Source of the DNA: a phage
Direction: 5' to 3' (one strand)
Sequence record: PZ242158.1
Length of the DNA: 64,000 nt
The notes under the pieces are model-generated. The model worked only from the letters and a program-made list of their open reading frames with translations. It was not told the DNA's origin and ran no database searches. Made by a program: the position numbers and the translations under genes. This document shows, piece by piece, positions 46,615 through 61,304 of the stretch. The first letter of the stretch is position 1, and every line of letters starts with the position of its first letter.

Positions 46615-46804
46615 GCTTAAATCTGCATGGAACATCGCTGTGGGAGACGAGATCCGCATCCCAGGCGGAAAGACAATCATGAAGATATCTCGTATCGAGT
46701 ACGAAGGTGATCGTGTATTCCACATCTTTGCAGAAGATGGTCGAGAAATTTATATACAGGCAGGTTCTCACATTTATATCCGTAAGAAAGGGGACGACAA
46801 ATGA
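46607..46804 (+). CDS. hypothetical protein
   Basis: Start at ATG 46607 after AAAGGAGG. Confidence 0.35.
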   Translation: MFKLKSAWNIAVGDEIRIPGGKTIMKISRIEYEGDRVFHIFAEDGREIYIQAGSHIYIRKKGDDK

Positions 46805-47130
46805 CAGAGATCATCATTTCAACTGCAGGGTATGTGTTCCTGACAATCATTGCACTGACTATTTTGGTTACAGTGTATGGGTTTGTTATCCTTCCTATCC
46901 TTGAGACATTTAGTTTGTGTCGGTGTTGGAGAAAAGCTTACGGGCCACAACCGTGGAAGGACTGGCCTCACCTGGTGCGCTTAGCGTTCTCTTATGCTTA
47001 CGATCACTCTAGCAGTGCATGCATAACCGGATACCACGCCCACAATTGGAGCTGGGAAGGGTTGAGGAAGTGGAATGTTACAAAGACTATACCTCTCCGC
47101 ATGTATAAACCTAAAAACAAAGATAGCTGA
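46801..47130 (+). CDS. membrane protein
   Basis: N-terminal hydrophobic stretch IIISTAGYVFLTIIALTILVTVYGFVILPIL. Confidence 0.4.
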   Translation: MTEIIISTAGYVFLTIIALTILVTVYGFVILPILETFSLCRCWRKAYGPQPWKDWPHLVRLAFSYAYDHSSSACITGYHAHNWSWEGLRKWNVTKTIPLRMYKPKNKDS

Positions 47131-47441
47131 TACTTGAAAATTTCTGGCATATCAAGTATAAGGGGGATTTCTAAAATGGATTTCCTCCTTTTTGATATTT
47201 CACCAGGCCAGATATTTTAAAATTCTTAGAAAATCAGAAAACGGATAGAAAACTAAAATGGATTTTTCAGGGTAGACACGATGAGCTGAGCCACTCATCC
47301 TATCGTTTGCGTCATATTCCGGGCTACCATTCCAGATTTTCCGCGTATGCTCACACCCTTCTACCAGAACTTTCCCACTCGCCCTTGGCCTTTTATGGCA
47401 ATAATCCAGCCACTATCTTGAAGTTGCGGTACAGCTCTCCA

Positions 47442-47529
47442 AGTACTCGATCTGTTTTTCGTTTCAAAGATTGAATTTTCTGAAAATTTTTCTCGATAAA
47501 TTTCTCAGTACTCGATCTGTTTTTCGTTT
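47442..47529. repeat. 23-bp iteron pair in an AT-rich region (candidate replication origin or protein-binding array)
   Basis: AGTACTCGATCTGTTTTTCGTTT at 47442 and 47507, a degenerate third copy near 47560; nearby (C)TAAAATGGATTT x3. Confidence 0.5.
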
Positions 47530-47732
47530 TCTGAATCGGATTTTCTGGAAATCGTTCCAGCTCTCGACCTGAAATTTTTGGGGACGAAATCGATTTTTCG
47601 TTTTCAGAAATGGATTTTTAAAATTTCTATATGGGAATATTTTATGGGATACTGTTTTATAGGAAATTGTTACGGAGGGTAATTAGCATGCTAATTAAAT
47701 TTATTAAATGCGAGGAGTTCTCATTTAGAATT

Positions 47733-47751
47733 TTGAATGATAATCATTCTC
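47733..47751. promoter_or_regulatory. Fur-box-like palindromic operator, site 1
   Basis: ttGAATGATAATCATTCTC matches the Fur consensus GATAATGATAATCATTATC at 15 of 19 positions. Confidence 0.4.
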
Positions 47752-47868
47752 GTTTGCAGAATAACGGGCAGGCCCGGTGATTGTCTCCCGGCCCCTGTTG
47801 CCCCGGCTTGTTATTATAGTATCACACAGGACAAAGAAAGCAAGGATTTTTTGCATAAATTTTTAAAT

Positions 47869-47887
47869 GATAATGATAACCGTTCTC
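47869..47887. promoter_or_regulatory. Fur-box-like operator, site 2
   Basis: GATAATGATAACCGTTCTC matches the Fur consensus at 16 of 19 positions; followed, like site 1, by ..gcag..ccccggtgRttgtctccc. Confidence 0.4.
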
Positions 47888-48406
47888 ATTTTATGCAGCG
47901 CCCATCCCCGGTGGTTGTCTCCCCCGTCACCGGTGCCTGCCGTCCTTTCGATAGGCATATTGTGCCACCTGGCGGGGCCGCTGTCAACACTTCTTCAAAA
48001 ATTTTTTCTAACATAATGCACCAACCGCTGCAACCTGGCGGGGCCAGCCTGGCAGGACCTGACTGACCAGGTAGGAGAGAGTGAAAACTTGCAAACCTGG
48101 TAGGCCTATGCTACAGGGCAGGTAACAATTGAAGAGGAGGTACAAAAATGAAAAGTAATATAATCCCCTGGAAAATGTAGCGATCAACGCCGCTGAAGTT
48201 ATCACCCTGGTTGAAAAGGCTATGGCGGGAGCGTTGGAACATAAAGAAGAGTACGAAAAATGATGGTTAACCTGGCAGGGGCGGCGGCTGGAGAATTCTT
48301 CCCAAAAAATAATTCTAACTAATGGTTGACAGCTCGGAGAGTTCTGTTATTCTTATCCTCGCAAGGTGAACAACACCACACTAATTAACAGAGAGGATAA
48401 AAAATC

Positions 48407-48604
48407 ATGAACGCCTACGGAATTAAAGTACGTCGCAACACTCACCAGGCCGTCACCGATCAAATGGTTTGCCAGGTGGACGTAACCATCAACAACGGGC
48501 AAGGCCTTTATAAATTCCGTCGCGGTCAGAGCTATACCCGGCAACAGCTTAATCGTTGCGCCCTGACAAAAGGCCAGATCAACCACTGGTTTAATAAAAA
48601 ATAA
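48407..48604 (+). CDS. hypothetical small basic protein
   Basis: 65-aa ORF, SD GAGAGGA. Confidence 0.4.
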   Translation: MNAYGIKVRRNTHQAVTDQMVCQVDVTINNGQGLYKFRRGQSYTRQQLNRCALTKGQINHWFNKK

Positions 48605-55164: not shown

Positions 55165-55219
55165 ACCTGGCGGGGCCGAAAAGGCCCCCAATTATGAAAA
55201 TAAAGAGAGGCAAATCATC

Positions 55220-56649: not shown

Positions 56650-56841
56650 ATGAATATCGAACAAGTTAGAAAGGTATTGGCGGTACTGCGTTATCATAAT
56701 CATAGAAAGGTCATAGACGATCCTGATTATGTCGATTCAAGCCTGGAAGGGGATACACTACAAGCCATAAGTAATATGCAAGAATTGCTAAAGCGCATGA
56801 CAGAGAAAAACCGACCGGACTACATAGGCGAAAAAATATAA
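56650..56841 (+). CDS. hypothetical protein
   Basis: 63-aa ORF. Confidence 0.4.
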   Translation: MNIEQVRKVLAVLRYHNHRKVIDDPDYVDSSLEGDTLQAISNMQELLKRMTEKNRPDYIGEKI

Positions 56842-56856
56842 TCCTTATAAACTACA

Positions 56857-56887
56857 AAACAGGGCTTGCAATGGTCCTGTTTTTTTG
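56857..56887 (+). terminator. intrinsic terminator
   Basis: ACAGGGC...GTCCTGT hairpin + TTTTTTTG. Confidence 0.55.
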
Positions 56888-56970
56888 TTATACTTGTTTC
56901 ACGGCAGGCACCTGGCGACGGGGGGAGACAATCACCGGGTGTGCCTGCTATATAAAAACTATAAAAACCG

Positions 56971-56999
56971 TTGACATCTGCCAGGTGCTGGGGTAGCAT
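56971..56999 (+). promoter_or_regulatory. sigma70-like early promoter
   Basis: TTGACA, 17 nt, TAGCAT. Confidence 0.5.
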
Positions 57000-57054
57000 T
57001 TATCTCGAAGGGGGCAAAAGCGCCCACACAACAACCGGAAGAGAGGAAAACGCC

Positions 57055-58216: not shown

Positions 58217-58234
58217 TTTTTTAACTGAATTATC

Positions 58235-58259
58235 AAGGGGCTTAGGTCCCTTTCTTTTT
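58235..58259 (+). terminator. intrinsic terminator ending the + strand early array
   Basis: AAGGGGC-ttag-GTCCCTT + TCTTTTT. Confidence 0.5.
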
Positions 58260-58870
58260 GTCTGCTCTTCCTCCCTACCATAAACGGCCCTACCTGGCAA
58301 GTGGAATAATTGACGAGCCATCAATCCCACACACTGTACAAATATACATGTAAAATAACTATTGCATAACCTTTCATTGTGTGGTAGCGGTGCTATTTTT
58401 ACCCGTTTTCCTTCCAAAATTGCACGTAATGCAGCTATTGCACAAAATTTAACCTGATGCGCATCTTCAATATCTTGTCAACAACTAAAAATCTTTATAA
58501 GTCATACACTTACACAAACCAAAAAGCGTGTTCTACGTGAAAAATCGAGTATAACTATAGCCGACAGATCTCAGAATTTACGTACGCTCACCATTCTATA
58601 GCCTGCTAAGTATTTATTCCGACCATAGAATAACAGAATAGTCAATACCTGCATAAAATAATTATTCGTTTAAATTGCATAACATAAATCAGCTCAGGTG
58701 TCAACATTTTTCGTAAACAGTCTGAAATTGTCACGGCAAGTTATCATAATCAGAGAAATCTTTAGTCGTCTAATGTTTACTGTACGTTACTATACTAACT
58801 GGAATCATTAGATGACTAATAGAAAGATAAGAAATAATTAACAATACAATTATTTTATCTGTAACAATAA

Positions 58871-59044
58871 GGCAACTATGCAAACGAATGGCATGGCGCG
58901 ACGGAGTCGCGACATAATATAAAAGCAGTAACCATCACCCCCGTGATAGTTTGTCTGCAATCTATTAATCAGATCATAGTTGCCTTGTATTTAGTTAATC
59001 ATGACATAACAAGCAAGGCAACTATAGATCTTCTAATAGTTGCC
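58871..59044. repeat. array of inverted 9-bp half-sites GGCAACTAT/ATAGTTGCC (operator- or centromere-like)
   Basis: Half-sites at 58871 (+), 58976 (-), 59017 (+), 59036 (-); the last pair forms a palindrome with a 10-bp spacer; 20-mer ATGCAAACGAATGGCATGGC repeated at 58878 and 59150. Confidence 0.45.
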
Positions 59045-59282
59045 CTGCTTTTATATTATGTCATATATTATTAACTTGTTAATTGTTAGTCAGTCAAATC
59101 AACAGCGTTATCATTTCAGTCTTTATTGTTGTTGATCGTTATTGTTATCATGCAAACGAATGGCATGGCTTATCATCTCTGTATAAACAGTTTATGCGTG
59201 AACAGTGAGGCATGCAATAGTAACAATTGTTATTGTGTCATCATGTCAAGGGTAAAGTGTCATAGTATGTCAGACATGTTTT

Positions 59283-59716
59283 TCCCCTCTTTGTCAAGTG
59301 CTGCATGAAAAAATTTACAAGCTGGTATGGTAGCATTTTTGCGGCCTTGTTTACATTCAGGAGTGTATGTATAATCCTTGTTGTGTGGGCGTTTATACGT
59401 CTGGACGGTCAGAAGTCTGCAGGTTAATATCTAATCTATTGGCTGCTAACTATATCCCACACAAATGATAAGAAATATAATTGTTATATGCGTAAACTGT
59501 AACTCATGTTATCAATCCCTGTATGTATCGCCAGTGGTGCGCATAATGGGTATTATGTTAAATTGCCCGTAATGATAACAGTTCTCACAATGATAGGTAT
59601 TCTCATTCATCCACACAAAATAGGTTGCAAATGTTGTGCCACTGTGTGAACGGCCTGGCCTATTAATTTCTCTCACTGCCTCGATATTTGAGAATTGTTA
59701 TAAGAATGAGAAGTAT
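59283..59716. repeat. 434-bp perfect direct repeat, copy 1
   Basis: Identical by eye to 59843..60276 over the full 434 bp; contains a promoter-like TTGTTT, 17 nt, TATAAT. Confidence 0.8.
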
Positions 59717-59842
59717 CCATGTTTATATTACATCTACTTGGTTCAGAACCAAAATGCGCGAAAGCGTTTCACGATAACTAGCGACCACGGTCTGTTCCCT
59801 GGCGGCCATACGGCTTCTACTGAACGCAGCAGAGGGCGATAA

Positions 59843-60276
59843 TCCCCTCTTTGTCAAGTGCTGCATGAAAAAATTTACAAGCTGGTATGGTAGCATTTTT
59901 GCGGCCTTGTTTACATTCAGGAGTGTATGTATAATCCTTGTTGTGTGGGCGTTTATACGTCTGGACGGTCAGAAGTCTGCAGGTTAATATCTAATCTATT
60001 GGCTGCTAACTATATCCCACACAAATGATAAGAAATATAATTGTTATATGCGTAAACTGTAACTCATGTTATCAATCCCTGTATGTATCGCCAGTGGTGC
60101 GCATAATGGGTATTATGTTAAATTGCCCGTAATGATAACAGTTCTCACAATGATAGGTATTCTCATTCATCCACACAAAATAGGTTGCAAATGTTGTGCC
60201 ACTGTGTGAACGGCCTGGCCTATTAATTTCTCTCACTGCCTCGATATTTGAGAATTGTTATAAGAATGAGAAGTAT
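59843..60276. repeat. 434-bp perfect direct repeat, copy 2
   Basis: Offset exactly 560 bp from copy 1, separated by a unique 126-bp spacer (59717..59842). Confidence 0.8.
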
Positions 60277-61304
60277 TCCCATTCCGTCCGCCTGGCAGCG
60301 CTCCTGTAGGTCCTGCAAGGACTCTAGCTTTCAGCTAGACCCTTCGGGCCTCCCTACAGGTCAGGTCAAAATCGTGGTAGAATTGGGCCTATTCAGATAT
60401 TTCTGGCTGACTCTTCAGGTCTGTGTGGGAAAAGCCAACCTCTCCGGCGGGGCAGGGGGAGGTCAATTAAAAAATTTACGTGGTGTATGAAGCGCTCTTC
60501 AGGTAAGGCAGGTATTATGGGATGAAACCCTCTTCAGGCAATGATATTTGTGGGTGTGATATTTGCTGGAAAGCCAGATATGACGGGACTCCCGGCGGGG
60601 CAGGGGTAGTACAGACAGGGAAAATATGAGAATGTAGTTGGGGAAATTGATCAGACAGGTAGAGTATGGAATATGTTACAAGTATGTTAAATATGGAGGT
60701 TGAATATCTGTAGGATTTGTGTGTAAAATCAAAGACTTAAGGGGTGTTGTGATATTTTCTATAAATAATTCAAGTTTAATAGGTGATATTTGTCTCTATC
60801 CGCTTTGTGTGGTAAACAGATTCAGATGAGATTGGTTTACAAGTGTATACATAATATACAAATTAAAGATACAAGAAACCCCCCATCCCCCTTCGGCTAC
60901 CATTCACCTTTTCCTCTGACTGGTACTTAAACACTTATTCAGACTCTTCAGGTTATCACCCATATATCATATGGCAGTGACTGGTGTCCTCCGGCCCCTC
61001 TTTCGTCACCCGTCCGCTTCGCCATGCTAATGCCATAGCCAATGGTTCGGTTGTTCACCCTGTTCACTCAGGTGTATCTCCATACCCCTTCAAACCGAAG
61101 AGAACAGAAAACCCGAATTACTCGGTAAAAGAAAAGAGAAGAACTTAATTTTATCAGGATAGGCAAGAATGTCAAGGCATGACTGCTCACTAAACAAGCA
61201 AACAGTCATGTGTGGGAGGTAAGTGATTGTGGTGGTGGGAAATTTAGTTGAAAGATGTGTTATAGGTGCGCTTCCAGCACTTTAGCCGGGCAGCTAATTG
61301 TGTG

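Follow-up and report, generated by a model that had tools for sequence, protein, structure and literature searches.

A candidate control module of rV5-like phages combining origin-type iterons with putative Fur-gated small RNAs

The phage DNA studied here, a stretch of 64,000 nucleotides from sequence record PZ242158.1 (the window), carries at 47131-48148 a region that holds three iterons, an AT-rich tract, matches to the operator of the host iron regulator Fur, copies of a small-RNA-like element that we call element A, and a promoter facing left (Panti). Both flanks are made up of small co-directional early genes whose PHROG matches are all of unknown function. By megablast, positions 47100-48450 are 92-96% identical to ECO111 5-P, inoa, FFH2 and rV5, which places the phage among the rV5-like phages of the genus Vequintavirus. 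Annotation of the region in the relatives is inconsistent, with 0-5 small 'hypothetical' open reading frames (ORFs) per genome. A search of the window for tRNA and tmRNA genes returned none; a host-derived sequence was rejected on the absence of any Escherichia coli match to 47725-47990 at E <= 1; and nothing was found in the literature describing Fur, small RNAs (sRNAs) or an origin in these phages.

The ORFs of the region do not behave as genes. The frame at 47737-48066 (109 codons) has its ATG start inside a Fur box, runs for only 6-26 codons in anhysbys, BIS47, PVP-SE1 and LNA4, and for 14 in Alma, a phage of the same genus, before it meets a stop, and gave no match in a Pfam search. Two smaller annotated 'ORFs' over the iterons begin with GTG or TTG, and one is broken by an in-frame stop in FV3, the other by a frameshift in Alma; the former, which starts with TTG, is of the bas54_0101 type (see below). 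Since the reading frames are interrupted by premature stops and frameshifts in relatives and in other genera, and Pfam offers no domain, a protein-coding function was rejected, and on this evidence we treat 47131-48148 as non-coding. A preliminary description, made from the letters of the window without database searches, had judged the 109-codon ORF unlikely to be coding and the region to be regulatory or RNA-coding; both judgements agree with the broken frames, the second also with the finding, set out below, that its GC-rich element belongs to an sRNA-like family recognized by a covariance model.

What is conserved instead is the arrangement of the non-coding parts. In other genera, sensitive BLAST recovers only ~47700-47850 of the region, in every case unannotated there, while nhmmer aligns ~800 bp of the module to Seunavirus, Mydovirus, Certrevirus, Serratia phage Kashira and Hena1-like phages, and a shorter stretch to Phapecoctavirus. 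The same location in Certrevirus, Seunavirus, Mydovirus and Phapecoctavirus is an unannotated, gene-free gap of 900-950 bp, and the order and spacing of the module are kept across Vequintavirinae and Stephanstirmvirinae: GATATTT sites, AAATGGWTTT-type boxes, iterons, AT-rich tract, Fur boxes, element A and the leftward promoter follow each other in all genera. Within Vequintavirus, an alignment of 8 genomes, scored as mean pairwise identity by segment, shows patchy conservation in a pattern independent of the ORFs (Table 1). In the variable segment before the next small ORF, ~48 bp after the 13-mer are missing by deletion from FV3, slur16 and EmilHeitz.

Table 1. Coordinates of predicted features, conserved segments and Bas54 counterparts in the window, and of related features elsewhere (L numbers are our handles for loci).
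Position	Strand	Feature	Details
47160-47195	+	Intrinsic terminator of upstream operon	Hairpin GGGGGA...TCCTCC, then T run; first AAAATGGATTT in loop
47173-47265	+	Two exact AAAATGGATTT sites	47173, 47255
47194-47217	+	Two GATATTT sites	47194, 47211
47272-47440		Weakly conserved spacer	rV5 ORF199 and window ORF 47307-47474 not conserved
47433-47625	+	Three iterons	Periods 65 and 74 bp; GTACTCGATCT + TTTTCG + AATCGGATTT-type box + A/T tract (GAAAATTTTT)
47578-47682		Iteron 3 and AT-rich tract	GC about 0.30; counterpart of 'essential gene' bas54_0101
47680-47697		Perfect 18-bp palindrome	TAATTAGCATGCTAATTA
47706-47726		Degenerate Fur box, -50 position	AAATGCGAGGAGTTCTCATTT; intact -50 boxes stand at the aligned position in Kashira, anhysbys and Certreviruses
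47733-47762	+	Predicted Fur box 1 over promoter	TGATAATCATTCTCG (47738-47752); -35 TTGAAT, 18 bp, -10 CAGAAT (47757-47762)
47764-47862	+	A1, putative sRNA	Core CCGGTGATTGTCTCC, 4-bp stem with C-rich loop, AU-rich linker, decayed terminator ending U6
47863-47888	+	Predicted Fur box 2	GATAATGATAACCGTTCTC; best Fur-consensus match of the window, 3 mismatches
47895-47958	+	A2, truncated second A copy	Hairpin CCGGTGG / UCACCGG around loop UUGUCUCCCCCG
47959-47987	-	Panti, predicted early sigma-70 promoter	TTGACA(47987)-N17-TG-CACAAT(47959); 13-mer (47967-47979) in spacer
56849-56948	-	A3, putative paralogous sRNA gene, complete	8-bp outer stem GCAGGCAC/GUGCCUGC around core, AU-rich linker, terminator
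47160-47271		Segment: terminator, GATATTT x2, AAAATGGATTT x2	Mean pairwise identity 92%
47272-47440		Segment: spacer	Mean pairwise identity 72%, 40% invariant columns
47441-47625		Segment: iterons 1-3	Mean pairwise identity 93%
47626-47732		Segment: AT tract, palindrome, degenerate Fur box	Mean pairwise identity 93%
47733-47990		Segment: Fur boxes, A1, A2, Panti	Mean pairwise identity 97%, ~90% of columns invariant
47991-48148		Segment: variable, second 13-mer copy (48033-48045)	Mean pairwise identity 68%
48149-48330		Segment: next small ORF	Mean pairwise identity 86%
46801-47130		bas54_0099 (upstream gene)	18/21 TA sites hit; in the paper non-essential
		bas54_0100 (iterons 1-2)	1/3 TA sites hit; in the paper not classified
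47578-47682		bas54_0101 (iteron 3 and AT tract)	0/11 TA sites hit; in the paper essential
47737-48012		bas54_0102 (Fur boxes, A1, A2, Panti)	5/15 TA sites hit; in the paper strong fitness defect
48149-48331		bas54_0103	12/14 TA sites hit; in the paper intermediate
48407-48604		bas54_0104	13/13 TA sites hit; in the paper non-essential
L010 4335-4435		Second-site copy of element A	
L017 5000-5100		Second-site copy of element A	
L016 9802-9902		Second-site copy of element A	
L012 1200-1301		Second-site copy of element A	
L007 2147-2240		Element B	
L004 2690-2780		Element B	
L006 2183-2275		Element B	
L004 2814-3080	-	Small leftward gene	
L008 2280-2546	-	Small leftward gene	
L007 2294-2476	-	Small leftward gene	
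L006 2326-2511	-	Small leftward gene	

The left part of the region is dominated by repeats. The 23-mer AGTACTCGATCTGTTTTTCGTTT occurs exactly at 47442 and 47507, one 65-bp period apart, where none was expected in shuffled sequence, and a third copy, 74% identical, lies at 47572-47618; the two exact iterons and the existence of a degenerate third had been reported correctly in the preliminary description. Exactly three iterons of the same composition are found in the 12 Vequintavirinae-type lineages, of 6+ genera, that were examined, with a period of 65-76 bp and at about -320/-260, -250/-186 and -177/-119 relative to the -10 element of the Fur-box promoter, so that number, spacing and position are all retained across genera. 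Their shared sub-boxes are GGTWCTCGATCG, TTTTC, AATCGTATTT and GAAAAAATTTTT. The motif AAAATGGATTT, which had likewise been reported from this region, is found exactly at 47173 and 47255 and with one mismatch at 47587(-) and 47607. Its count over the whole window is unremarkable (6 against 3.5 expected), and 4 of the 6 matches fall within 450 bp. Motifs of this type ('box c') recur in each iteron, at 47534, 47587 and 47607, with a density of 1.8/kb in the module against 0.03/kb elsewhere; the sequence given earlier as TAAAATGGATTT is the same box, and in Hena1-like phages the iteron box reads AAATGGATTT. GATATTT is present in 1-5 copies, 520-690 bp upstream of the Fur-promoter -10, in 15/15 lineages (4.7/kb at that position, 0.16/kb elsewhere), and in the relatives the sites stand at or past the stop codon of the upstream gene. 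On the right the iterons adjoin an AT-rich tract with a GC content of 0.30 over 47580-47760, followed by a palindrome that is probably not essential, since one of its arms is mutated in rV5 and FV3 and it is absent from other genera.

The two best matches in the 64 kb to the 19-bp E. coli Fur consensus GATAATGATAATCATTATC are found next, at 47733 (4 mismatches) and 47869 (3), where 0.22 matches with at most 4 mismatches would be expected in the window. This array, the key feature of the region, had been missed in the preliminary description. Defined as the 7-1-7 inverted repeat TGATAAT-N-ATTATCA, Fur boxes with 1-3 mismatches were found in 16 lineages, with a density of 10.5/kb over the 215 bp preceding the -10 element and 0.27/kb elsewhere in the same loci, a 39-fold difference. 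Wherever the proximal box was detected (15/16 lineages) it starts 21 bp before the GAAT of the -10, and further boxes stand at -50 and -79, i.e. in 29-bp steps. There are two boxes in the module of the window and one to five in those of relatives (five in SD2 and KaOmega, four in PBES02, three in anhysbys, phiWec181 and POP15); the degenerate box AAATGCGAGGAGTTCTCATTT at 47706 is, by its alignment, the remnant of a -50 box. The proximal box overlaps the core promoter, itself recognized by consensus match only, between the -35 TTGAAT and the -10 CAGAAT, and its module shares the half-site TGAGAAT with the Fur box of E. coli ryhB. Unrelated contigs (L011, L020), also retrieved by the same pattern, have tandem Fur boxes of the kind usual in bacteria. 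That a host operator is conserved in phages with hosts from seven genera leads us to infer that Fur really binds here, and these boxes are very probably genuine Fur operators.

Element A follows directly. Its GC-rich core CCGGTGRTTGTCTCCC has three copies in the window, at 47774(+), 47908(+) and 56923(-), with 0.02 expected; a GC-rich element at 47905 and its reverse complement near 56.9 kb had been described, and both are present, but the copies number three and not two. A1 alone of all the parts is recovered by BLAST from other genera, and it is 97% identical within the genus. A2 (fold z-score -2.2) is confined to Vequintavirus, other genera having a different element, B, in its place. A3 (fold z-score -3.0) has a terminator hairpin and U run that also terminate the + strand gene 56650-56841, and the island 56853-56954 is 78-80% identical in Phapecoctavirus, Seunavirus and Certrevirus, where it is unannotated. 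Orthologs at this second site, read on the minus strand, are preceded by one or more Fur boxes in Mydovirus, L012, EspYZU15, SSBI34 and DU_PP_IV, and by TATATA in their place in the Phapecoctavirus copy and in A3 of the window. All share, in this order, GC(G/A)GGCAGG, the near-invariant core (T)CCGGTG(T/A)TTGTCTCCCCC, a return strand that pairs with the 5' end, an AU-rich linker (AUAACAAAAA) and a compensating hairpin, with a U run after it in most. The terminator stems change in a compensatory manner (CAGG/CCUG, CCAGG/CCUGG, GGGG/CCCC, GCGAG/CCCGC), and RNAalifold recovers the terminator at the second site. The two sites are 7-8 kb apart and in inverted orientation in Mydovirus and a Hena1-like phage, as they are in the window at 9.1 kb, so that the inverted pair on either side of a block of early genes is itself conserved.

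A covariance model built from ten second-site copies scored A3 at 87 bits, recognized A1 along its whole length and on the + strand with 38.5 bits (E about 1e-7), and found all first-site copies in other genera (E 1e-9 to 1e-3); A2 was marginal (15.6 bits, E 0.13). In a model-fitted alignment of 24 sequences, 76.6% of cells pair and covariation is 0.241 against 0.126 in shuffled alignments, a value reached by 0/500; sliding the partners along the same alignment gave at most 0.133, and two-sided changes were seen in five of the five terminator pairs. A 4-bp stem that immediately follows TTGTCTC at the first site takes the forms CCGG/CCGG, GCGA/UCGC, GCGC/GCGC, CGCA/UGCG and CGGG/CCCG; in a hand-registered alignment it is 95.5% paired with 4/4 compensatory pairs, and its score was reached by 0/500 shuffles. 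G·U pairs are formed on the A-sense strand in Alma (CCGG/CUGG) and in the A2 and A3 hairpins. The core CCGGTG(A/T)TTGTCTCC is near-invariant in all copies and genera, with variable flanks, and is presented in a loop or single-stranded stretch; CCGGUG(A/U)UUGUCUCC (13-17 nt) is therefore presumably the seed for base-pairing with targets, and within the window its only matches are the three A copies themselves. A discrete predicted unit with a Rho-independent terminator, within the ~60-120 nt of Fur-repressed sRNAs, is seen in A3 and its orthologs. The A1 'terminator' is, on comparison, a decayed homolog of that of A3 of which only U6 is kept, and A2 has none. We consider it fairly probable that the A family is transcribed as sRNAs.

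No known RNA family accounts for element A. Rfam gave no match to any copy, nothing at its gathering thresholds, only chance-level matches in the region at E <= 10, and none at the second-site loci at E <= 1; the RyhB family (RF00057) was likewise not matched in the region at E <= 10. A role as an anti-RyhB sponge was rejected, the duplex energies of A1, A2 and A3 with RyhB being no better than those of shuffled sequences. The 12-mer TTGTCTCGCGAT is shared by the ryhB promoter/+1 region (L245) and element A of PVP-SE1 (L007 2050-2062), and in both it is followed by a GCGA...UCGC stem with a 12-13-nt loop; the sharing may be chance or a trace of common ancestry. A scan of IMG/VR with the 16-mer core CCGGTGATTGTCTCCC yielded >100 matches, almost all of them chance identity in a prophage gene (L122-L240) that was set aside as irrelevant; the gene occurs in very many enterobacterial prophage contigs, has the translation ...GLPVIVSQYVGDQLVLVNAPDIYLADDGG..., and presumably encodes an HK97-type major capsid protein. 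Near A3, positions 56985-57048 (+) weakly match the L2-Alphaproteobacteria ribosomal-protein leader (18.9 bits against a gathering threshold of 37.8, E 0.021); as the match lies over the promoter and 5' untranslated region of the next gene, it is most likely due to chance.

To the right of A2, Panti faces leftward into the module. An equivalent is present in every genus, its spacer GC-rich and often hairpin-forming; the -10 of EmilHeitz, CATAAT, is nearer to consensus, and the promoter fits the Certrevirus early promoter 'AAAA-N3-TGTTGAC...TATAAT' (PMC7344957). The 13-mer ACCTGGCGGGGCC, correctly reported before to occur exactly three times (47967, 48033, 55165), has two further variants with two mismatches, at 48270 and 54677, giving 5 matches against 0.64 expected. 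It did not hold up as a structured repeat in its own right, and an independent function for it was rejected: it is a promoter spacer, a small hairpin or a terminator arm. The copy at 47967 is the Panti spacer, that at 55165 merely forms one side of a plain terminator hairpin that follows a stop codon, and that at 48033 lies in the variable, deletion-prone segment. The predicted Panti transcript is nearly complementary to the A1/A3 core; its 5' part holds GGGGGAGACAACCACCGG, which could pair with 18/19 positions of the A3 core. Running antisense to A2 and then A1, this transcript could act as a built-in anti-sRNA.

A published HIDEN-SEQ transposon-insertion map of the Vequintavirus Bas54 (bioRxiv 10.1101/2025.11.20.689424) bears directly on the importance of these parts. 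Its genes were placed on the window by ORF lengths and spacing, both the same as in MaxTheCat and the window, and by TA-site counts (21/3/11/15/14/13 in Bas54, 21/4/10/14/12/12 in the window; Table 1). The counterpart of iteron 3 and the AT tract received no insertion, and mean counts in bas54_0102, the counterpart of the Fur boxes, A1, A2 and Panti, were about 13 against 150-600 for its neighbors, roughly a 10-fold reduction (bioRxiv 10.1101/2025.11.20.689424). Because bas54_0101 and bas54_0102 are not genes, what these data show is a non-coding element that is essential. It is not discussed in that paper (bioRxiv 10.1101/2025.11.20.689424), and two Bas54 'essential genes of unknown function' can be reinterpreted as, apparently, parts of this one element.

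Several further features were seen at or beside the module. Element B, a conserved structured element of ~90 nt that the window lacks, separates A from the antisense promoter in other genera. Compensatory changes recur in its P2 hairpin (CAACC/GGTATG, CGACC/GGTACG, CATGC/GCTATG, ATAGC/GCTAT). A pseudoknot with CGCC/GGCG would arise from a second pairing (CCCC/GGGG, CCAG/CTGG or CCAA/TTGG), and two CU-rich stretches of the element resemble an anti-Shine-Dalgarno sequence. With no Rfam match, element B represents a second unclassified structured RNA, in the sister genera. Directly to the right of their antisense promoter these genera have a small leftward gene with no counterpart in the window, of two unrelated types, one of 88 aa with the motif LGWQGGTVHQVA and one of 60 aa starting MENxxVxTSETMVTL, both with PHROG matches of unknown function only. 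The motif TCTTTACAA / TTGTAAAGA recurs at L007 2120-2145 and in L252 and L255; at the first site, after A, it is an 11-bp-phased direct repeat (TCTTTACAAATCTTTACAAA), and copies in the opposite orientation flank the second-site sRNA gene on either side. A phage protein probably binds it; no copy was seen by eye in Vequintavirus sequences, which were not searched with the pattern. In the window the next small ORF, 48149-48331, has a strong Shine-Dalgarno sequence (GAGGAGG) and is shortened to 10 codons by a 1-nt deletion relative to the 60-aa bas57_0100 of MaxTheCat (PHROG 21957); rV5 and L014 have other indels, and the A-run before its end varies from A5 to A8, so that it is either a decaying gene or affected by homopolymer sequencing errors. 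Finally, some 16-18 records labelled 'Campylobacter phage' (MG0656xx) share 90-93% identity with rV5-like phages of E. coli in this region and look like mislabelled or contaminant Vequintavirus genomes.

The sequence anatomy, its conservation across genera, the covariation and the essentiality in a sister phage are the observations on which we base a working model; Fur binding, the transcripts, origin function and the sRNA targets enter it as deductions from sequence. We would give about an even chance to the view that rV5-like phages have, in this stretch without ORFs, a conserved and composite control module that is non-coding and consists of two coupled halves, and our best reading of those halves, an origin-type iteron module coupled to Fur-gated small RNAs, seems to us equally finely balanced. 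The left half (47160-47732) would be a platform for DNA-protein assembly, essential in cis and most likely an origin or its initiator-loading part, where a phage protein would bind the iterons and box-c sites and the AT tract would be unwound. From ~230-370 bp to the right of the tract, Panti (47987->47959) would transcribe into it and open, activate or prime it, as in origins of the T7/T4 type; such a role would account for the harm done in rich medium by insertions that separate the promoter from the tract. In the right half (47733-47958), host Fur would occupy its operators over the sigma-70 promoter. In low iron Fur would leave the DNA, and A1 (~100 nt), perhaps with A2, would be made and join A3, the core pairing with targets as a seed. 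On a wider and more tentative view, which we regard as possible though not probable, lytic rV5-like and phi92-like phages sense host iron via Fur arrays and answer with RyhB-analogous, non-homologous sRNAs, the switch being fused to an essential iteron origin and opposed by an antisense early promoter, so that early expression or replication would be tuned to iron.

That the iteron module is a replication origin is plausible because its iterons are conserved across genera and the iteron-3/AT segment of Bas54 took no insertions; we place its likelihood just short of even. At least three direct repeats do lie beside an AT-rich tract, and the published Bas54 data (0/11 TA sites hit in the equivalent of 47578-47682) indicate a requirement in cis. 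The origin-like layout of the preliminary description stands in these respects, but the region has no DnaA box (TTWTNCACA), an initiator gene is not evident next to it, the flanking PHROGs all being of unknown function, and a rival region exists. All three weigh against our model, as do other points. The AT-rich tract is only moderately AT-rich, and GC skew tracks transcription and is uninformative for an origin, as also found in the rV5 genome paper (PMC3606486). On the RNA side, A1 alone is no more stable than shuffled sequences (z = +0.44), A1 and A2 have no clean intrinsic terminator, and RNAalifold on plain MAFFT alignments gave no consensus structure for the A 5' domain, where covariation comes only from the hand-registered or model-fitted alignments, both of which lean to the tested structure. 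On the promoter side, the -10 has no critical A at position 2 in some lineages (CTGAAT in Mydovirus, CGGAAT in L012), and A3 of the window has only a weak -35 and no recognizable Fur box. A Fur-repressed RNA is also expected to be silent in rich medium, and the insertion defect in the Fur/A1/A2 segment is therefore not attributable to that RNA alone.

A serious competing location for the origin is a second transposon-free non-coding region of ~2.5 kb at ~58.2-60.7 kb, which could be the real one. This gene-free stretch, 58217-60730, corresponds to the bas54_0134/0135 intergenic region, which received no transposon insertions by HIDEN-SEQ and was singled out by the authors (bioRxiv 10.1101/2025.11.20.689424). 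It separates opposed transcription units and contains five GATATTT sites and, at 59380-60300, a direct repeat of ~560 bp, in which 59380-59940 recurs from 59940 onward and both copies have adjacent Fur-like boxes (CGTAATGATAACAGTTCTCACAATGATAGGTATTCTCATT at 59568/60128) and GATATTTGAGAATTGTTATAAGAATGAGAAG; it is an equally good candidate. Were it the true origin, the iterons and the GATATTT/AAATGGATTT boxes of our region could be the operators of a phage transcription factor that times the early programme, with the A family and Panti as RNA outputs, and a position inside a co-directional early-gene block with no change of skew, like the missing DnaA boxes and initiator gene, would be as expected. 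Yet operators for a dispensable timing function should tolerate insertions, the neighboring early genes all being dispensable, and three phased 65-75-bp iterons with A/T tracts beside an AT-rich tract form the classical layout of an origin. Two essential non-coding regions may moreover coexist, e.g. an origin and a packaging or entry site, and we consider a purely regulatory role for the locus somewhat unlikely. The repeats themselves might instead form a packaging (pac), genome-entry or other DNA-handling site. Such a site would likewise be essential in cis, and the iterons of most genera contain GATC, as does the pac site of P1; with a location in the early-gene block, far from the terminase genes, and with Hena1-like iterons that have no GATC, this seems very unlikely.

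Other explanations concern the right half and the annotation. As a Fur sink, replicating boxes would titrate host Fur and derepress iron-uptake and other Fur-regulon genes, element A being a leader or structural DNA with no RNA function. Multicopy Fur boxes do derepress the regulon, which is the principle of the Fur titration assay, and the 2-5 high-quality boxes per site exceed the need of one promoter, with further clusters elsewhere in the genome. A passive sink would, however, need neither the fixed 21-bp register between the proximal box and a -10-like GAAT in 15/16 lineages, nor ~100 nt of conserved and covarying sequence downstream, nor the terminator that ends the second-site copy, and these count against it; we find it quite unlikely as the function of the locus, and titration of Fur by replicating phage DNA likely as a side effect. 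That the region encodes small proteins as annotated in relatives (bas54_0100-0102, rV5 ORF197-199), some of them essential, would agree with the 1-5 small ORFs of GenBank records and with the HIDEN-SEQ classes of bas54_0101 and bas54_0102, but the annotations conflict between genomes (one ORF in the inoa record, none in Alma and PDX), start codons are GTG, TTG or absent, the frames are broken in FV3, Alma and the other genera as described, Pfam is silent, and the alignment shows near-invariance in place of third-position variation. We regard this as hardly credible.

A family of sRNAs that is operated by Fur, has several copies and, in virulent phages, is fused to an essential non-coding element seems not to have been described before. 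If true, it would be the first iron- and Fur-controlled small-RNA family in strictly lytic phages, in a module that spans two subfamilies with hosts in Escherichia, Klebsiella, Salmonella, Serratia, Cronobacter, Pectobacterium and Erwinia; candidates for therapy or biocontrol in iron-poor host settings are numerous among them. The iteron module would also be a concrete place to look for the replication origin, as yet unmapped, of these phages.

The left half invites comparison with lambda ori, P1 oriR and iteron plasmids, with which it shares a direct-repeat array, phased A/T tracts and an adjoining AT-rich tract, which in Vequintavirus is followed by a palindrome, as well as, by the Bas54 data, essentiality in cis. 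It differs in having only three iterons, which are composite and 65-75 bp long against the classical 18-22 bp, and in the absence of DnaA boxes and of a recognizable adjacent initiator gene, both typical of classical iteron origins. The module also recalls the transcription-primed T7 primary origin and T4 oriF/oriG: a strong promoter, Panti, faces an AT-rich, easily unwound tract ~230-370 bp downstream, and insertions between the two are deleterious in Bas54; those origins have neither iteron arrays nor host-repressor operators between the promoter and the DNA unwinding element, and priming through an R-loop is conjectural here. Panti also recalls lambda oop, P22 sar and AgvB/AsxR of enterohemorrhagic E. 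coli prophages, small RNA loci at which, as here, the product of a convergent promoter is complementary to the sRNA core, oop lying beside the replication region as this locus lies beside the candidate origin; there is no homology to any of them, and the use of the pairing is putative here. Element A resembles RyhB, PrrF, NrrF and IsrR in having one or more Fur boxes over the promoter and a predicted RNA of about 90-100 nt made up of a short stem-loop at the 5' end, an AU-rich linker and a Rho-independent terminator (here in A3), with a seed-like invariant stretch, and it shares with ryhB the half-site TGAGAAT and, in PVP-SE1, the 12-mer. Unlike that class it is encoded by virulent phages, in 2-3 copies per genome, with up to five tandem Fur boxes and facing an antisense early promoter; it has no sequence or covariance-model similarity to RyhB, nor any special complementarity to RyhB itself. 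The closest precedent for the use of Fur by a phage is the stx1 promoter of Shiga-toxin prophages, where a phage-borne promoter under host Fur also yields an iron-responsive product; there, a single box controls a protein toxin in a temperate prophage, whereas here arrayed boxes in virulent phages would control a non-coding output.

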